Below, piece after piece: positions 4,259 through 14,952 of a stretch of DNA of 14,952 bases. Origin of the DNA: Candidatus Bipolaricaulia bacterium. Its GTDB lineage: Bacteria > Bipolaricaulota > Bipolaricaulia > JBHIAT01. The notes under the pieces were generated by a model, which had not been told where the DNA came from, did no database searches, and saw nothing but the letters and a program-made list of their open reading frames with translations. The stretch is taken from assembly GCA_046758705.1 (NCBI GenBank), contig JBHIAT010000084.1, forward strand, positions 1 through 14,952, read 5' to 3'. The position numbers and the translations under genes were made by a program. The first letter of the stretch is position 1, and each line of letters starts with the position of its first letter.

Positions 4259-4735
4259 CTACTCTTTTGGTGCTTCATCGTCTTGAGTCTGTGATTGTAA
4301 GATTTCTATGAACCGTGCCGGAGAGACGATCTGGACTCCCTCATAACTGCCTAAATCCGTCAAATCTGGATCTCCAGAGACGATATAGTCAGCTCTGCCT
4401 TCGACAGCGACGATCACAAATTTGTCATCATCTGGGTCCCTTTCGATCACTCGGATTTTCAGCTCGCCCGCTGTCTTAACAGCCAACCGTTCCACCGACT
4501 GGAGAAGCTCCTTTACCTCCGCATCGCTCCAGGGGCTGATTGCCCTGATTCTTGGGTAAAAGAGCACCTCCTGCATCTCCTCCAGAATGGCAGGTGAGGT
4601 GATCAGTTGATACTGCCGCTCTATCCGTCACGCATCGACAATCTTAGCCGGATTTCCTTCAGCGACCACGGTGGCACTAACGAAGAGGTTGGTATCGACA
4701 ACCACCTTAAGGATTGCTTTGTTAGCACGTTTCAT
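4259..4735 (-). pseudogene. PIN-domain (VapC-like) toxin interrupted by an in-frame TGA at 4630-4628
   Basis: ATG at 4735 overlaps the antitoxin stop (ATGA). Reads MKRANKAILKVVVDTNLFVSA...KIVDA*RIERQYQLITSPAILEEMQEVL and continues in the same frame into the listed ORF with RDPDDDKF...ADYIVSGDPDL. The full frame would be 158 codons. Confidence 0.88.
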
Positions 4736-5022
4736 TCACGACCCTTCGCTCGTTTCTCCCGTCTTACAGCAGCTACAGCCTCGGTCACCGCTTGCTCTAT
4801 CTCCTTGGGGTCCTTATCCTTGTTGTATACTCTTGCCTGATTGATCAATTCATCCAGCCGCTTCCAGGCCTGTTCACGGTCGAGGGTAACGACCGGCCTT
4901 AGGACGATGAGGTTGTCTTTGAGCTCGGCTTCTAACAGGTCACCTCTTTCTAGGTCCAAGGCCCTGCGTATAGCGGCGGGAAGGGTAATCTGTCCATTTC
5001 TGAGGACTTTGATCGTTGCCAT
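4732..5022 (-). CDS. AbrB/MazE/SpoVT-family antitoxin
   Basis: N-terminal KVLRNGQITLPAAIRRALDLERGDLL...IVLRP swapped-hairpin motif. RBS GAGGAG upstream. Coupled to the PIN gene. Confidence 0.92.
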   Translation of the reverse strand: MATIKVLRNGQITLPAAIRRALDLERGDLLEAELKDNLIVLRPVVTLDREQAWKRLDELINQARVYNKDKDPKEIEQAVTEAVAAVRREKRAKGRE

Positions 5023-8700: not shown

Positions 8701-9093
8701 TTACCATACAGTCTCGACCTGATCTGAGTCCCGGAGAATTTGATCTTTGGTGAGAATCGTCGCTTCATAGTGCCGGGCTGTAGCTGCAATGATCCGGTCA
8801 TGAATGCTGAAAGCCTCGGACAACTTCAGCATGATCTGGAAGACCTCGAAGTCAAAGGGGATAACAACAAAGCCATCCGCTTGTTCCACCTGCTCTAGGA
8901 TTTTCTCAATAGTTGTCTCGATCCGCTTCTGCTGAGTGATGTAATGCAGCTCAGCCAGCACGATGGTCGGAATCAAGACCTCCACCTCAGCAATCTCCCC
9001 TTGCCTCAGGATCTCCCGAGCCTGTTGTGACAATTTCTTATCCTTGGCGATAAACCATCCAAGACTGTGGGCATCAGCAACGTAGATCTTCAT
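8701..9093 (-). CDS. PIN-domain (VapC-like) toxin
   Basis: YVADAHSL, PTIVLAEL, IHDRIIAATA and ILTKD acidic-residue pattern; 130 aa; starts 3 nt after the antitoxin stop. Confidence 0.9.
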   Translation of the reverse strand: MKIYVADAHSLGWFIAKDKKLSQQAREILRQGEIAEVEVLIPTIVLAELHYITQQKRIETTIEKILEQVEQADGFVVIPFDFEVFQIMLKLSEAFSIHDRIIAATARHYEATILTKDQILRDSDQVETVW

Positions 9094-9096
9094 GCG

Positions 9097-9309
9097 CTAA
9101 TCCTCGAAGCTGTAAGCATCCTCAAACACGGCCCGTTCGGCTTCTTCGAAGTCCTCTTCGGTGATCTCAACACCTTCCCAGAGCCCTTCGAGCTTAGTGG
9201 TGCGTTTCTCTCCTTCTAGCTTGTGACCGATCAGCTCACGCAACCGGTCGAGCTCCTTCTGAATGGCCTCAAGCCGGGTGAGGACGTAAGAAGATGTCTT
9301 GTCCGTCAT
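9097..9309 (-). CDS. Putative antitoxin
   Basis: 70 aa with an acidic tail (KLEGLWEGVEITEEDFEEAE), SD GGGAGG, and position directly upstream of the PIN gene. Confidence 0.8.
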   Translation of the reverse strand: MTDKTSSYVLTRLEAIQKELDRLRELIGHKLEGEKRTTKLEGLWEGVEITEEDFEEAERAVFEDAYSFED

Positions 9310-9345
9310 GATAGGCCTCCCAAAGGCTATTAGGAATTGCTATTT

Positions 9346-9411: not shown

Positions 9412-9663
9412 ATGCAAAAAGAACAGCTGAGAGGTTATGAGTACCACGGCTTCTGCCAGTACTATCAAACTCCCATCGCCCGGTTGGTACTCGTCAATCG
9501 GACGGAGACCTACCTGCCCTATGACTGGCACGAGAAGGGATTCAACCGCTGTGGCAGGGAGCAGACCGGCCTGGACCTCCCGTGCTTCGGATGTGAACAT
9601 CATACCTGGAAGGAGGATTTGAATCGGGAGGAAGTGTTGCAGCGGTGGGTACCCGACACATGA
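9412..9663 (+). CDS. Small Cys/His-rich hypothetical protein, possibly metal-binding
   Basis: SD GAGGAG and a promoter upstream. Four Cys (15, 47, 58, 61) with a CFGCEHH motif. The paralogous 3' end at 13482-13532 differs mostly at synonymous sites. Confidence 0.65.
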   Translation: MQKEQLRGYEYHGFCQYYQTPIARLVLVNRTETYLPYDWHEKGFNRCGREQTGLDLPCFGCEHHTWKEDLNREEVLQRWVPDT

Positions 9664-9851
9664 TCGGTCACAATCACGGCGATTATCGATCAAGCGACTT
9701 CCTCTTATACAGATTGTCCCCACCCCAACACCGTATGGCATGACAAATGCCAGCCTGTTCGATGACCAGGATCATAGCATTGGCCAATCGAGTCAATTAA
9801 CTTAAATCAAGTATAAACAGGAGACCGTGAGCTATCGAGGAGGGATATATC
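9613..9851 (+). repeat. Direct repeat copy 1 (3' end of small ORF plus nirS upstream region)
   Basis: Aligns with 13482-13706: 47/51 identity over 9613-9663, a 34-bp identical block at 9735-9768, and shared aacttaaat and tatcgagg motifs up to the RBS. Confidence 0.92.
9735..9803 (+). promoter_or_regulatory. nirS promoter/operator region
   Basis: Palindrome TGGCAT-N5-ATGCCA (9736-9752). Crp/Fnr-like ATGAC-N4-ATCAT (9762-9775). Candidate -10 TAACTT (9798-9803) at class II activation distance. Confidence 0.6.
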
Positions 9852-11435
9852 ATGATCAAGCGTCGTGACAACCACTACCGGATTCGGATTCTCTCATTGC
9901 TGGTCATGGGGGTCCTAGTCACCCTCCTGATCGCTTACGATGGCGTCACACCCACTGTAGCGCCAGCAACAGTGTCAGCTGCTGATGAACCGATCGTTCG
10001 AGGCAAGCCGGTTTCAGCTTTCTTTCTGGACTCGTGTGCCGGCTGCCACGGCACCGATCGCCGCGGTGCCACCGGGCCGGCTCTGTTGCCCCAGCGCCTT
10101 ACCCAACCCGATTATTACTATTTCGATGTGATCAAGAACGGCAAACCGGGGACAGTAATGCCGCCGTGGGATGGGCTGCTCTCCGACGACGAGATCAATG
10201 CCCTGGTAGTCTTCATCCACAGCGAGCCAGCGGCTGGTTCGCTGGAGTGGACGCTGGAGGATATCAAGGCCAGCCTGGAGGTGCTTGTCCCGGAGAACGA
10301 GTTACCGGATGCTCCGACCCATAGTGGCAATCTGGACAACCTGATGCTGGTCACGGAGCGTGAGGCGCGAGCGATTGTCGTGATCGACGGTGACACGCAC
10401 AAGTTGCTTGGGAAGATCCCCGCCTCCTACCGCGCCCACGGCTACACCTTCTCCCCGGCCAACTCGCGCTGGGCCTACAACATGGGCCGTGACGGCTGGG
10501 TGTTCAAGATCGACCTGTACAGCCTGAAGTCGGTACGGAAGGTGCGCGTCGGGCTGGACTCCCGTGGCCTGGCCATCTCCGACGACGGCAAGTACCTCAT
10601 CGCCGGCAACTACATCCCCACCACCGCCGTCATCATGGACGCCAAGACCCTGGAACCACTGAAGGTCATTGTCACCGAGGGCGTTGACCCGGATGGTAAC
10701 TTCGTCCAGTCGCGGGTGTGCATCACCAGTGATGTCTCACCGGACCTGGTGGGCCCTTACTTTATTATTGCCCTGAAGGAGGCGGGACACGTCTGGCGCA
10801 TCGATTACTCCAGTCCAGACTTCCCTATTAAGAAGGTGGAAAACGCAGGGCGCATCCTGCACGACGGGTTCTTGAGCCCAGACAACCGATACTTCTACCT
10901 GGCGTCCCAGAAGGATAACTGGATGACCGTCATTGACGTGGCCAACTGGGAGTTGGTAGAAAAGATCTCCACAGGCGACACCCCACATCCCGGGTCCGGT
11001 GCTGTGTGGGAAGCCGATGGCACGATTTACGGCGCCACGGTCCACGCCGGAGAAGGTAAGGTCACCATCTGGGACCTGGAGACCAACGAAATCATGGGCA
11101 CCGTTCCCACCAAGGGACCTGGCCTGTTCATCCGCTCCAGCGAACACAGCCCCTATGTCTGGGCGGACGCCCTCTTCGGCGTGCCTGCCAACACCATCAC
11201 AGTCTTCAAGAAGGGGAAGCCCTTTGAGGTGGTGAAGGTCATCCAGGAAGGCGTCATGACTCTCCACCCGGAGTTCACCGCCGATGGAAAGTATGTTTAC
11301 ATCAGCGACTGGCAGGGGAACGTGGTGCGGGTCTACGATGCCGAGAGCTTGGAGAAGATCACCGAGATCTCCGGCATCACCACGCCCACCGGCATCTTCA
11401 ACGTGGGGCGGCGTCTGGAGACACTAGGGCACTGA
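9852..11435 (+). CDS. nirS: Cytochrome cd1 nitrite reductase
   Basis: N-terminal signal/anchor. Heme c motif CAGCHG.DRRGATGPAL and distal Met in PGTVMPPW. d1 beta-propeller with YRAHG, GRDGW, SRGLAIS, LHDG and PHPG histidines, HPEFT and TPTGIFNV. SD GAGGAGG. The paralogue NirN is not formally excluded. Confidence 0.85.
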   Translation: MIKRRDNHYRIRILSLLVMGVLVTLLIAYDGVTPTVAPATVSAADEPIVRGKPVSAFFLDSCAGCHGTDRRGATGPALLPQRLTQPDYYYFDVIKNGKPGTVMPPWDGLLSDDEINALVVFIHSEPAAGSLEWTLEDIKASLEVLVPENELPDAPTHSGNLDNLMLVTEREARAIVVIDGDTHKLLGKIPASYRAHGYTFSPANSRWAYNMGRDGWVFKIDLYSLKSVRKVRVGLDSRGLAISDDGKYLIAGNYIPTTAVIMDAKTLEPLKVIVTEGVDPDGNFVQSRVCITSDVSPDLVGPYFIIALKEAGHVWRIDYSSPDFPIKKVENAGRILHDGFLSPDNRYFYLASQKDNWMTVIDVANWELVEKISTGDTPHPGSGAVWEADGTIYGATVHAGEGKVTIWDLETNEIMGTVPTKGPGLFIRSSEHSPYVWADALFGVPANTITVFKKGKPFEVVKVIQEGVMTLHPEFTADGKYVYISDWQGNVVRVYDAESLEKITEISGITTPTGIFNVGRRLETLGH

Positions 11436-11461: not shown

Positions 11462-11746
11462 GTGCATGTTCTTTACCTGCTGTCAGTCTGGCTGCACATC
11501 CTGGCTGCAGCGATCTGGATCGGGGGGATGGTCTTTCTAGCCCTGATTCTGGTCCCGGTGACCCGACGGCCAGAGCACCGAGGCATTGCTGTCTCCCTCA
11601 TCCACTGGACCGGGGTGCGCTTCCGTTGGGTGGGTTGGATCTGTCTGGGGTTGCTCCTTCTCAGCGGCATCTTTAACCTGGCCTACCTCTTGGCCTTGGT
11701 TGTGGTTGCTCTGGGGGTGATGCTGGTGCGAGGCTGGCCCTGGTAA
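11462..11746 (+). pseudogene. CopD/DUF4149-like membrane protein, apparently with an in-frame internal deletion
   Basis: WLHILAAAIWIGGMVFL...RFRWVGW...SGIFNLAY is joined directly to the terminal helix LLALVVVALGVMLVRG. Only 94 aa, GTG start, weak RBS. Confidence 0.6.
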
Positions 11747-11765: not shown

Positions 11766-12863
11766 ATGAAACCCCGATATCGCATCCATTTTCCTCTGAT
11801 GGGGCTGGGGATGATCGCCTTATTGACGGCTTTGTGGGCCGGGCTGGTACGCTTGGGCTGGAGGTTGCCTTCACTGCAGTCCACCCTACCCATCGCTCAC
11901 GGCCCCCTGTTCGTCTCCGGTTTTCTGGGCACCCTCATCGGCCTGGAGCGGGCGGTAGCGCTGGGCCGCCGTTGGACCTACGCTGTACCATTGCTGACCG
12001 GGCTGGGTGCTCTGACCCTGAGCATCGGCCTATCTGATCCACTTAGCCCGTTGCTCATCACCCTGGGCAGTTTGGGCTTTGTGGTCTTCTCTATCGTCGT
12101 CGTCCGTCGCCAACCCGCTCTTTTTACGGTCACCATGGAGCTTGGCGCGATGGTCTGGCTGGTGGGCAATGCCCTCTGGCTCTCAGGCTGGCCGATCTAC
12201 CGCGTCGGTCCTTGGTGGACCGGCTTCCTGGTGCTGACGATCGCGGGAGAGCGCCTGGAGCTGGCCCAGCTGTTGCGCCTTTCGGGCACGGGCCGCGCCA
12301 CCTTTCTGTTCGCTATAGGTCTCTTCCTAAGCGGGCTCGCCCTGACGGGTGTGGCCTTTGACGTCGGGGTACGCTTGACTGGAGTGAGCATGATCGCACT
12401 GACCCTGTGGTTGTTGGTCCACGACATCGTCCGATACACGGTGCGCAAGGCGGGACTGACCCGCTTCACCGCGATATGTCTGCTTGCCGGTTACCTCTGG
12501 CTGGGAACCGGTGGGGGGCTGGGATTGCTCTTCGGTGGCGTCGTGGCCGGACCACACTACGACGCCCTACTACACGCTTTCTTCCTGGGGTTTGTCTTCT
12601 CGATGATCTTCGGCCACGCACCGATCATCTTCCCGGCGGTGCTGGGCCTGTCTGTGCCCTTCCGACCAACTTTCTACGCCCACCTGATCTTACTACACCT
12701 GTCGCTGCTCCTGCGGGTGGTGGGGGATCTGGTAGGCTGGCTGTCGGGGCGGCAGTGGGGTGGGTTGCTCAACGTGGTGGTGTTGTTGCTGTTTTTAGTG
12801 AACACGGCGCGCTCAGTTCGGCAGGGGAACTCCCTGTCCGCCCCCCGCAGAGGTCGAAGATGA
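11766..12863 (+). CDS. NnrS-like polytopic membrane protein (NO/nitrite-associated)
   Basis: About 11-12 hydrophobic segments. Motifs AHGPLFVSGFLGTLIGLERAVA, LTIAGERLEL and DALLHAFFLGFVFSMIFGHAPIIFP. SD GGAGG. Confidence 0.7.
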   Translation: MKPRYRIHFPLMGLGMIALLTALWAGLVRLGWRLPSLQSTLPIAHGPLFVSGFLGTLIGLERAVALGRRWTYAVPLLTGLGALTLSIGLSDPLSPLLITLGSLGFVVFSIVVVRRQPALFTVTMELGAMVWLVGNALWLSGWPIYRVGPWWTGFLVLTIAGERLELAQLLRLSGTGRATFLFAIGLFLSGLALTGVAFDVGVRLTGVSMIALTLWLLVHDIVRYTVRKAGLTRFTAICLLAGYLWLGTGGGLGLLFGGVVAGPHYDALLHAFFLGFVFSMIFGHAPIIFPAVLGLSVPFRPTFYAHLILLHLSLLLRVVGDLVGWLSGRQWGGLLNVVVLLLFLVNTARSVRQGNSLSAPRRGRR

Positions 12864-12936
12864 ATCCCGGAAACAATGCTCCGAAGTGAGGTTATGCACC
12901 CACATTTGCTCCGGTGCCTGGTACCCCCACGCAAAC

Positions 12937-12966
12937 CTTGATCTGTAGGGAATCAAGATTTAGAAT
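12937..12966 (+). promoter_or_regulatory. Sigma70-type promoter of the hemerythrin gene with overlapping inverted repeat
   Basis: TTGATC (12938-12943), 17 bp, TAGAAT (12961-12966). Inverted repeat CTTGAT-N9-ATCAAG (12937-12957). Confidence 0.6.
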
Positions 12967-13002
12967 ATTGCTGTAAAAGTAATGCCGAGGAAGGGGGACA
13001 CC

Positions 13003-13479
13003 ATGAGCAAAGTGAGTGAGGCCATCCGCAACCACCATCGAGAACTCATGAGCACGCTGACGGCGCAGGTGACAGCTCTGGTGGAGGGCCGGCCGGAGGC
13101 CGACCCACAGATCCTGGCCGCTTTCCTGAAGGGTGATCTGCTGCCCCACGCCCTCGGCGAGGAGCAGCACCTTTATCCCGCCGTTGAGCCACTGGTTAAG
13201 GCCCACGGCCAGGCCACGGCCACCATGAGCGTAGACCACGAGTTTATCCAGAACTACATCCGCCAGATCGAAGAAACCACTCAGGCCCTCCGCACCGCTG
13301 GGGCAGATGAGCGGTCGGGTCTGGAAGGCCATCTCCAGCGTTTGGCCATGCAACTGGAGGCTGTGCTTCAACTCCACCTGGAGAAGGAGGAGCGGGTTTA
13401 TCTGCCCCTGTTCGAGCAGTATCTGTCGGAGGAGGAACAGCGACACGTGCTGGATGAATGGCATGCACGAGGCTTATAG
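13003..13479 (+). CDS. Hemerythrin (HHE cation-binding) domain protein
   Basis: Ligand pattern IRNHH, HALGEEQHLYP, MSVDH and HLEKEERVYLP. ATG 13003 follows the purine-rich RBS aggaaggggg; alternative start 12982. The C-terminus is possibly frameshifted near 13455. Confidence 0.88.
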   Translation: MSKVSEAIRNHHRELMSTLTAQVTALVEGRPEADPQILAAFLKGDLLPHALGEEQHLYPAVEPLVKAHGQATATMSVDHEFIQNYIRQIEETTQALRTAGADERSGLEGHLQRLAMQLEAVLQLHLEKEERVYLPLFEQYLSEEEQRHVLDEWHARGL

Positions 13480-13481
13480 CA

Positions 13482-13706
13482 GAGGATTTGAATCGGGAGG
13501 AAGCGTTGCAGCGGTGGGTGCCTGACACTTGATCGGCCGCGATCACGCCAATCATTGGATTAAACGACTCTCGGTCGTATCAGAATTATCCCAACATCGC
13601 ATGGCATGACAAATGCCAGCCTGTTCGATGACCAAAACCATAACATTTGACAATCTCGATCAACTTAAATTAGAATTAAAAAATTGTAGGTTATCGAGGG
13701 GGAAGC
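13482..13706 (+). repeat. Direct repeat copy 2 (remnant 3' end of a small-ORF paralogue plus regulator upstream region)
   Basis: 13482-13532 reads EDLNREEALQRWVPDT*. 13601-13634 is identical to 9735-9768. Confidence 0.92.
13601..13676 (+). promoter_or_regulatory. Regulator promoter: shared palindrome plus near-consensus sigma70 promoter
   Basis: TGGCAT-N5-ATGCCA (13602-13618), ATGAC-N4-ACCAT (13628-13641), and TTGACA (13647-13652), 18 bp, TAGAAT (13671-13676). Confidence 0.65.
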
Positions 13707-14888
13707 ATGGTCAGAGTTGGGGATTTGGTGTACTTCTCCTCCGACGCGGCCTTTGCCGTGGACCATGAGCTCCGGGTCGTAGCCTGGAACCGGCACGCCG
13801 AAGAGTTTCTCGGCTACCGGGCGCAGGAGGTCGTCGGCCGTTTCTGCTACGCTGTCCTCCAAGCCATCCTCCCCGATGGACAGGTTTTGTGCACCCCTCA
13901 CTGCCAGGCCGAGCTGTGTTTCGGCCACTGTCAACCTTATGCCATCCGAAGCTGCCTGGGCCGTCACAAGGACGGCCAATGGGTGAATCTGAGCCTGAGT
14001 AGTATGGCCATACCCAGGACTGCCCAGGATGATGGGATAGTGGCTGTCGTGTTTTTCCGACCGCTGGAAGCGTCCGATGAAACACCTGCCCCTGAGGCGA
14101 TGTTGCGGCTGTTCACCTTGGGACGGTTTAACATGGGGGTAGGAGACAAAGGTATCCCGTTCTACAAATGGGAGCGAAAGCAGGCATTGACGCTGCTGAA
14201 GTACCTCATCACCCATCGGGGACATGTGGTGCACCGAGAGCGTCTCATCGAGTGCCTGTGGCCCGGGGCAGCCGAGCACCAGGGGCGGGAGCGCCTCAAG
14301 GTGACGGTGTACTCCCTGCGGCGGGAGCTCCGCAGGGCCGGGGTTCAAGAGCAGATCATCGAGACAGTCGACGAGGCCTATATCCTGCGGCGGGAAGGGA
14401 TCTGGATGGACGCGGATGCCTTTGAAGCGCTTATCAAAGAAGGGTACAACCTGGAACGCCAGCATAAAGCAAAGGAGGCGCTCCGCCGCTACCAGAAGGC
14501 GGAAGACCTGTATCGGGGCGACTATATGGAGGAGGACCGGTACGCCGATTGGTGTGCCGAAGAGCGGGAACGACTGAAGGAGCTCCACCTGGATATGCTT
14601 GGCAGGATGGCGGAGTTGTACGCCGCTCATGGTGAATACGCCCAAGCAGCGCAGGTGTGTCGCAAGGTTCTGGTGCGGGAGCCCTGTCGGGAAAGCTTCC
14701 ACCGCGCCCTTATGGAGTACCTGTGGCATCAGGGCCGGCGGGACGAAGCACTGGTCCAATTTCACCACTGCAGGCAAGTGCTGGCAAACGAGTTGGACGT
14801 AGAACCGATGCCGGAGACGCAGCACCTCTATCAGCAGATCCTGCAATCCCCTCAAGAAAAAGCTTCCGTGACATCCTCCCGGCATTAA
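13707..14888 (+). CDS. SARP/AfsR-type transcriptional activator: Cys-rich PAS + winged HTH + BTAD
   Basis: PAS (DAAFAVD..RVVAWNRHAEEFLGY..EVVGR). wHTH (LRLFTLGRF...ALTLLKYL...RERLIECLWP...LKVTVYSLRREL). BTAD (DADAFE...LYRGDYM...W...ERERL...EPCRESFHRALM...ELDVEPMPET). Confidence 0.9.
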   Translation: MVRVGDLVYFSSDAAFAVDHELRVVAWNRHAEEFLGYRAQEVVGRFCYAVLQAILPDGQVLCTPHCQAELCFGHCQPYAIRSCLGRHKDGQWVNLSLSSMAIPRTAQDDGIVAVVFFRPLEASDETPAPEAMLRLFTLGRFNMGVGDKGIPFYKWERKQALTLLKYLITHRGHVVHRERLIECLWPGAAEHQGRERLKVTVYSLRRELRRAGVQEQIIETVDEAYILRREGIWMDADAFEALIKEGYNLERQHKAKEALRRYQKAEDLYRGDYMEEDRYADWCAEERERLKELHLDMLGRMAELYAAHGEYAQAAQVCRKVLVREPCRESFHRALMEYLWHQGRRDEALVQFHHCRQVLANELDVEPMPETQHLYQQILQSPQEKASVTSSRH

Positions 14889-14920
14889 ACATGCCGCGCA
14901 TCCCGTCGTTGGAATGCCAG

Positions 14921-14940
14921 CGTCCACCTGGTCGTGGACG
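14921..14940 (+). terminator. Possible terminator hairpin after the regulator
   Basis: CGTCCAC-ctggtc-GTGGACG, a 7-bp perfect stem, with only a weak U-tract. Confidence 0.3.
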
Positions 14941-14952
14941 GTTGAGGTTTGA

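Follow-up and report, generated by a model that had tools for sequence, protein, structure and literature searches.

The window, i.e. the whole 14,952-nt stretch of DNA analysed here, comes from the genome assembly of a Candidatus Bipolaricaulia bacterium (G000) and carries near its right end a gene (13707..14888, + strand) encoding a 393-aa regulator, whose last six codons derive from a repeat element. The protein contains a PAS domain (Pfam, residues 12-54), a wHTH domain (Trans_reg_C, PF00486, residues 160-222) and a BTAD (PF03704, residues 234-379), with PF00486 and PF03704 matched above their cut-offs, and no ATPase domain was detected in it by the Pfam scan. In the structure model of the regulator (pLDDT 90), the last 250 residues gave EmbR and AfsR as the best folds, and the N-terminal part matched PAS folds. 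The architecture given in a preliminary description of this DNA, a PAS fused to wHTH-BTAD with no ATPase domain, was thus borne out by Pfam and by fold matches, and we could also confirm the six PAS cysteines listed there (47, 62, 66, 71, 75 and 83, spaced C-x14-C-x3-C-x4-C-x3-C-x7-C), whose codons occupy positions 13845..13955 (+ strand). This is the sole PAS of its kind encoded in the source genome. Among solved structures, no relative covering the Cys region was found, the matches being general PAS folds (Z up to 13.9). The recognition helix, G193-R205 (GRERLKVTVYSLR; 14283..14321, + strand), was compared with those of the regulator's relatives and keeps the family consensus at G193, R196, L197, K198, V199, T200, Y202, L204 and R205.

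Upstream of the regulator gene and in the same orientation lies a gene for a cytochrome cd1 of the Anaerolineae NirS type (9852..11435, + strand), 70-79% identical to its best hits, which are Anaerolineae-type proteins, many of them named nitrite reductase. The encoded protein has a CAGCH haem c motif and three NirS-type d1-site histidine motifs (RAHGY, ILHDG and TPHPG); the d1-site histidine residues of NirS have been defined (PMC8756737). It scores 265 bits to NirN versus 171-183 bits to NirS structures, NirN being an outgroup to NirS (PMC10999283), and nirD, nirL, nirG and nirH were not found in G000 with the queries used. Judged from its sequence, the cd1 protein is likely to have nitrite reductase activity. 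Such a gene is present in only two of 184 genomes of the phylum, both of which carry the regulator. It is followed by genes for a short DUF4149-like membrane protein (11462..11746, + strand), homologues of which follow nirS in genome G112 and the family operator described below in G111; a 365-aa membrane protein without a family match (11766..12863, + strand), whose candidacy as NnrS was rejected for want of any similarity; and a hemerythrin-domain protein recognized by a domain match (12982..13479, + strand). The segment 5' of the hemerythrin gene (12925-12962) matches contigs of three sequencing runs that then diverge, and this promoter piece recurs elsewhere. Further to the left, two PIN-type toxin-antitoxin pairs (4259-5022 and 8701-9310) flank acetyl-CoA synthetase and aminotransferase genes, and the left arm of the window encodes secreted PKD and repeat proteins.

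The regulator and cd1 genes are each preceded by a copy of a duplicated block of approximately 220 nt (9613..9852, upstream of the cd1 gene, and 13482..13706, both + strand), the two copies being 72% identical over 243 columns. Its middle is formed by 34 identical bases (9735-9768 and 13601-13634), a run that exceeds those in shuffled sequences (p 0.00045). The block begins within an 83-aa ORF (9412..9663, + strand; no family match), the 3' end of which lies inside the duplicate, so that the second copy contains a stump of this ORF (its last 17 codons), the 34-nt core, a sigma70-like promoter (TTGACA-18-TAGAAT at 13647-13676, matching 11 of 12 consensus positions) and a ribosome-binding site. 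The 83-aa ORF contains a C-x2-C-x-H-H motif; that its last 17 codons are kept in the second copy may mean that the underlying DNA matters for another reason. The shared core (9735..9775, + strand; second copy at 13601..13641, + strand) resembles a tandem Crp/Fnr-type motif of the source genome and includes, at 9762-9775, an ATGAC-N4-ATCAT box, the sole FNR/DNR-like box in the window. The block is present in two copies in G000, where no additional copy of the core with fewer than 10 mismatches in 34 was found; the 183 other phylum genomes yielded one weak 32-nt match only. A palindrome, TGGCAT-N5-ATGCCA, likewise occurs in just two copies, both in the window; it may be an NsrR-like site, and G000 has two Rrf2 genes.

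The source genome contains 17 Crp/Fnr genes, a large expansion, with five of them within 16 kb on contig C4. Five promoters in or near a Crp/Fnr gene cluster on contigs C4 and C35 share the arrangement TGTGAGAAATCTAACA-N7-ATGAC-N4-..CAT, these tandem Crp/Fnr-like promoters being located at C4:8304, 9327, 10182 and 11747 and at C35:10905. When a matrix was trained on these other contigs, without the window, the two window copies ranked 13th to 22nd among 7.37 million positions; they score 11-14 bits, compared with 40-59 for the training sites. The likeness of the core to the Crp/Fnr-type motif is to be taken as a lead only, because it was seen by eye before being scored; it would agree with control of both genes from one level up.

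The right end of the window is occupied by the start of the repeat element (14868..14952, + strand), inserted in the last codons of the regulator gene, and the contig ends inside it. The element, which is about 220 nt long with a hairpin near its start, is found at four places in the assembly (the window end, C15:29074-28990 and the ends of C21 and C231), and in three runs of one study its coverage is three- to fourfold that of the surrounding DNA. Its start resembles the ends of IS200/IS605 elements. In a related strain present in run X4, the sequence continues at 14867 without the element.

Relatives of the regulator were recovered when loci were searched by alignment; a single-protein search of genome contigs gave no matches. 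From 345 genome loci and 224 metagenome loci we examined the 80 best of each kind (160 of 569 in all), and these formed, together with the window, 113 groups at 85% identity. The named groups belong to the Pseudomonadota (55), Chloroflexota, Bipolaricaulota/Fraserbacteria, Bacteroidota, Nitrospirota, Acidobacteriota and Hydrogenedentota, and within the phylum of the source organism six of 184 genomes carry the regulator. Eight further genomes of this phylum (loci L187-L194) encode more distant Cys-bearing PAS domains on proteins of approximately 310 aa, outside the regulator family.

Inspection of the neighbourhoods by tblastn revealed a small gene in 87 of the 113 groups, narG in 52, a gene for a c-type cytochrome 5' of narG in 43, bd-oxidase-like genes in 30, an idr-like molybdoenzyme in nine (accompanied by Rieske and peroxidase genes) and cd1-like genes in two, namely the window and one NirN. 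Locus L059 was rejected as a second nirS neighbour, since by its motifs the gene encodes NirN within a haem d1 cluster. A respiratory gene is present in 60 of the 66 groups with at least 5 kb of downstream sequence and missing from the other six. NarG of the relatives exceeds the TIGR01580 cut-off and is of the Thermus type (58% identity to Thermus NarG versus 47-49% to others), while the cytochrome encoded 5' of narG is a NarC homologue. The nearest neighbour of the window protein in the tree, L007, heads a small gene-narC-narGHJI-narK-narK operon. A link of the family to NOx respiration therefore stands, as relatives head Thermus-type narC-narGHJI-narK operons, but nirS as the usual target is not supported: the operons headed by relatives are of the nar, bd-like and idr-like kinds, and G112 is the only related genome in which nirS follows the family operator. 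Nor did the linkage to nor and nos raised at the outset emerge among the 44 annotated recurring neighbour clusters (94 clusters were seen in at least two groups), none of which is of the Crp family.

Several neighbourhoods and G000 itself share further modules. A recurring module without narG is found at L011, L023, L036, L104 and L151 and on contig C35 of G000 (L175:7376-13777), and encodes a bd-oxidase-subunit-I-like protein, c-type cytochromes, a cytochrome-EbdH fusion, a Usp-PCP_red protein, a radical SAM protein and a HemG-like protein. On contig C43 of G000 (C43:15593-21865; L174:7593-13865), genes for two di-haem peroxidases, a Rieske protein and an Aio-like molybdoenzyme lie together, and clusters like this one are found behind the regulator gene in several relatives. 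The arrangement is that known for the iodate reductase idrABP, from which the name idr-like, used here for the molybdoenzyme-Rieske-peroxidase arrangement, is taken. A haem-copper oxidase search in G000 gave one hit only.

The cysteines of the PAS domain are not equally conserved. In the best 120 of 851 homologues, the query included, C47, C62 and C66 are each retained in 120 of 120, C83 in 107, C71 in 100 and C75 in 60, and the 111 dereplicated locus proteins give a similar picture (C47, C62 and C66 in all 111, C83 in 106, C71 in 93 and C75 in 52). Of the six cysteines considered in the preliminary description, the triad is therefore invariant and C83 nearly so, whereas C71 and C75 are variable; what the family conserves is C-x14-C-x3-C, probably joined by C83 as a fourth residue. 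Fe-S-based or thiol-based redox sensing by these residues is plausible. In OrpR (PMC8359166) and in NreB of Bacillus licheniformis (PMC13478379), three PAS cysteines have been demonstrated to hold an Fe-S cluster.

Counts of spaced words disclosed direct repeats with an 11-bp period between the regulator gene and the downstream operon in 37 of 81 regions (1.3 expected). The resulting family operator, TGTYACC-N4-TGTYACC followed by a TGn-TA -10-like box, was counted with up to two mismatches in groups having enough DNA on the side examined: 81 of 102 groups have it on the sense strand 3' of the regulator gene, at a median distance of 174 nt (range 35-406), compared with 18 of 102 on the other strand, two of 105 upstream and one of 113 inside the gene. 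This layout is that described for SARP sites, which are direct repeats right upstream of the -10 box (PMC11301090). The exact pattern is present in four of the six phylum genomes with the regulator and in 10 of the 178 without it, and a control pattern is about as frequent (18 genomes), so the presence of the operator is weak evidence and only its position is informative. In this respect, the operator follows the regulator in G011, G115 and G105 (one mismatch in the last); in G111 two sites precede the DUF4149-like gene, followed by the small gene and a Tat molybdoenzyme gene; and in G112 a single site lies 149 nt 5' of a canonical nirS, followed by the DUF4149-like gene. It also occurs in three of five further genomes tested, preceding a Tat NarG-like gene on a separate contig in G184 and lying beside other copies of the regulator in G187 and G188. 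In the window, the best scores are -1.9 bits (cd1 promoter) and -7.7 bits (regulator promoter), compared with at least 17 bits for true sites, and no clear operator was found in the whole of G000, the best being a marginal 19.8 on C24 (19-46 for true sites). G000 also has bd-like (C35) and idr-like (C43) clusters of the kind usual beside the relatives, and no operator was found 5' of either.

The small gene is the first gene of the relatives' operon and encodes a product of 60-90 aa with the core SFVARIWLE...WRGHIRHVQ...YF, for which no Pfam, NCBIfam or PDB relative was found. Cofolding of the small protein with the regulator from the same locus (L054) gave a score of 0.65, compared with 0.00 for the best control, and the runs agreed in 93% of contacts. 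The partner has a pLDDT of at least 76 in this complex, and the interface lies on BTAD residues 281-294, 327-332 and 364-372. In a benchmark that is roughly applicable here, 116 of 157 solved pairs scored at least this high, as did two of 215 mismatched pairs. These models support binding of the small protein to the BTAD, a prediction that concerns the family and not the window copy, because no small gene was found in G000.

Taken together, the regulator belongs to a widespread family of single-protein sensor-activators that has apparently not been described before and whose members probably turn on nitrate-type anaerobic respiration in the absence of oxygen. We consider it likely that they are SARP-type one-component regulators activating operons for anaerobic (oxyanion) respiration, GAF-less counterparts of Thermus DnrS, and that the window copy is rearranged and co-regulated with nirS by a factor of the Crp/Fnr family. 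The putative SARP-type activation by the regulator is supported by comparison with characterized proteins of this fold. According to this model, the PAS cysteines would hold an oxygen- or redox-labile Fe-S cluster, and under anoxia two regulator molecules would occupy the repeats and bring in RNA polymerase in the manner of AfsR (PMC11301090), with the small first-gene product binding the BTAD and tuning or damping activation. By comparison among the relatives, the target operons of the family are those for nitrate reductase, for bd-like cytochrome complexes, for idr-like enzymes and, in one case, for nirS. In the window, the duplicated promoter block is common to the regulator and a Chloroflexota-type nirS cassette; the repeat element would sever the regulator from its usual operon, and a Crp/Fnr-family factor would control the regulator and nirS together, neither activating the other through the block.

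The preliminary description had instead proposed a sensor of O2 or NO that directly activates nirS. Spelled out for this genome, the regulator would act through the shared 34-nt core on both the nirS-type gene and its own, which now appears quite improbable. The core is indeed conserved beyond chance, the regulator gene is situated 2.3 kb from the cd1 gene, and both cd1-bearing genomes among the 184 of the phylum have the regulator; moreover, nirS and a DUF4149-like gene follow the family operator in G112, the gene order being that of the window, and DnrS is needed for induction of nirS in Thermus (PMC5748679). Against this, the core has no match to the operator on either strand (at best -1.9 bits, true sites scoring at least 17), even though the recognition helix is unchanged, and it resembles the Crp/Fnr-like motif, while the block as a whole is a duplicated stretch with a gene stump in it and, apart from one weak 32-nt hit, was not found in the 183 other phylum genomes. 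Of the upstream operator claimed to be shared with nirS, then, the identical 34-nt sequence is real, but its role as the regulator's own operator is not supported: the family direct repeat differs from it and is absent from both promoters, and the recognition helix conforms to the consensus. The same observations speak against direct activation of nirS through the core, and control of the adjacent nitrite reductase gene by the regulator via the shared block is improbable. The duplicated block makes it most likely that the regulator and nirS are co-regulated from above by a Crp/Fnr-family factor, a reading with which the FNR-type boxes 5' of the regulator gene in 23 of 105 relatives agree.

Two other readings leave more of the proposed model intact, and both seem to us rather unlikely. 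The window copy might be an orphan in decay or in transit, its operon lost or severed by the repeat and the protein now regulating nothing, with the family model valid for the relatives. Neither an operator nor narG above the cut-off nor the small gene was found in G000 (an assembly of 319 contigs, 94% complete); the repeat element lies within the last codons of the gene, and the continuation of the element-free X4 allele was likewise not found in this genome. The position of the element together with the contig end implies that the operon normally found downstream has been severed or lost, or else was not assembled, and the window copy is a poor example of its family because it is severed from that operon. 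However, its reading frame, cysteines, recognition helix and sigma70-like promoter are all intact, the downstream DNA may be merely unassembled, and G000 does have the bd-like and idr-like clusters, albeit free of the operator. The other reading retains the regulon and the operator as described but assigns the cysteines to zinc, haem or disulphides, or the signal to nitrate, NO, sulphide or redox potential instead of O2. Signals do differ among related Cys-PAS sensors, being redox potential in OrpR (PMC8359166) and sulphide in B. licheniformis NreB (PMC13478379), and FNR-type boxes found 5' of the regulator gene in 23 of 105 relatives (1.1 expected) suggest that O2 is already read one level up. 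The targets of the family, which span nitrate, idr-like and bd-like enzymes, can be cited in support too, but such a variety of acceptors favours a general anoxia or redox cue over a single substrate, and DnrS, which has the same Cys triad, is conformationally sensitive to oxygen (PMC7694296).

If the model of a labile Fe-S cluster and a family-specific operator is right, its significance extends beyond the locus. Uncultured bacteria of the sea, of sediments and of the subsurface are assumed to switch on nitrate respiration through FNR, DNR or NarXL, and the regulator family offers an alternative. We tentatively suggest that an Fe-S oxygen sensor of a third type, independent of FNR, may run nitrate-type respiration in uncultured bacteria of several phyla, in the form of a Cys-PAS SARP with its own operator and a BTAD-binding small partner; that C33, C48 and C51, rather than the GAF domain, may form the sensing site of DnrS; and that the operator may allow the regulon (nar, idr-like, bd-like and nirS) to be read from metagenomes. 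The predictable operator and the predicted partner protein provide two experimental handles on the family, and the interest of these results rests on the family and on the DnrS cysteines, less on the rearranged window copy. Our searches of the main text of open-access papers gave no description of the regulator family or its operator. In the passages searched of a survey of PAS domains, Fe-S motifs are mentioned only for a handful of NreB type (PMC10468136), and neither DnrS nor SARP occurs in a review on the control of nitrate respiration (PMC8139620).

Among characterized proteins, the regulator shares the wHTH and BTAD fold with AfsR and EmbR (PDB 8K60, 8HVR and 2FF4; E 1e-13), and with AfsR the family also shares direct repeats one helical turn apart just 5' of the -10 box (PMC11301090). 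It differs from them in having an N-terminal sensor, in lacking an ATPase domain, TPR tail or FHA domain, and in its connection with respiration instead of secondary metabolism; with the NCBIfam model for AfsR (NF053617) it scores 67 bits, far below the cut-off of 1430. Like the regulator, OrpR of Desulfovibrio vulgaris works as a one-component activator and conserves three cysteines in its PAS, the last two spaced C-x3-C, and it holds a [4Fe-4S] cluster; according to its description, with which the comparison was made, its motif is nevertheless C-x8-C-x3-C and its output domain is a sigma54 AAA+ module (PMC8359166). NreB of Staphylococcus carnosus and Bacillus licheniformis is an Fe-S PAS sensor as well, the staphylococcal system controlling nar and nir, but it is a histidine kinase of a two-component system with the motif C-x2-C-x11-C(-x2-C) (PMC13478379). 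The parallel with NreB drawn for the Cys-ligated PAS thus does not extend to the motif, which the regulator does not share.

The closest precedent is DnrS of Thermus, described as an oxygen-sensitive GAF-BTAD protein needed for nar as well as for nirS induction, with sensing assigned to the GAF domain (PMC5748679, PMC7694296, PMC6282519). T. thermophilus DnrS (WP_014511197.1) resembles the window regulator in its C-terminal wHTH-BTAD (28% identity, match probability 98.4), and its N-terminus contains a PAS, C33-x14-C48-x2-C51, that aligns with C47, C62 and C66 of the family (profile probability 97.8, E 1e-12); DnrS members of the Meiothermus type score up to 38.6 bits with the Cys-PAS profile. 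C33, C48 and C51 are present in all rows covering them (59, 60 and 62 of 67, respectively), and C77 is also conserved, though not aligned with C83 of the family. The passages searched of PMC5748679, PMC7694296 and PMC6282519 contain no mention of a PAS or a Cys triad in DnrS, and none came to light in wider literature searches. Four further cysteines of DnrS (L178:1800-3605), C316, C321, C338 and C348, are conserved in 66-67 of 67 rows in a second GAF-like region and may represent a second metal site. The dnrS gene of the NAR1 plasmid (L177:2301-4105) is frameshifted and annotated as two genes, possibly through a sequencing error; the JL-18 and SG0.5 records are whole.

DnrS, like the relatives of the regulator, is tied to an operon of the narC-narGHJI-narK type; a narC-narG operon lies beside the regulator gene in relatives but not in the window. 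The two kinds of protein are nonetheless distinct. DnrS has 601 aa, with GAF domains between the PAS and the wHTH, compared with 393 aa and no GAF domain in the window regulator; it has a Crp-family partner, DnrT, for which neither the window regulator nor the annotated neighbours of its relatives provide an equivalent; and dnrS is divergent from narC, whereas the relatives' regulator gene lies on the same strand directly ahead of the operon. The operator at the DnrS locus differs from the family operator, which was not found around Thermus dnrS-narC, and the small partner gene is a feature of the family. In a tree of the wHTH-BTAD region (94 rows, four short rows having been dropped), DnrS and the family form separate supported clades, and the link between them is without support. 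The arrangement, which had been thought undescribed, therefore has a published precedent in DnrS, a BTAD regulator of nar and nirS with the same Cys-PAS (PMC5748679, PMC7694296), and this shared domain renders the sensing site of DnrS testable. What was known is thus DnrS as an oxygen sensor of nar and nirS; apparently new are the GAF-less family, its operator and the Cys-PAS of DnrS itself.
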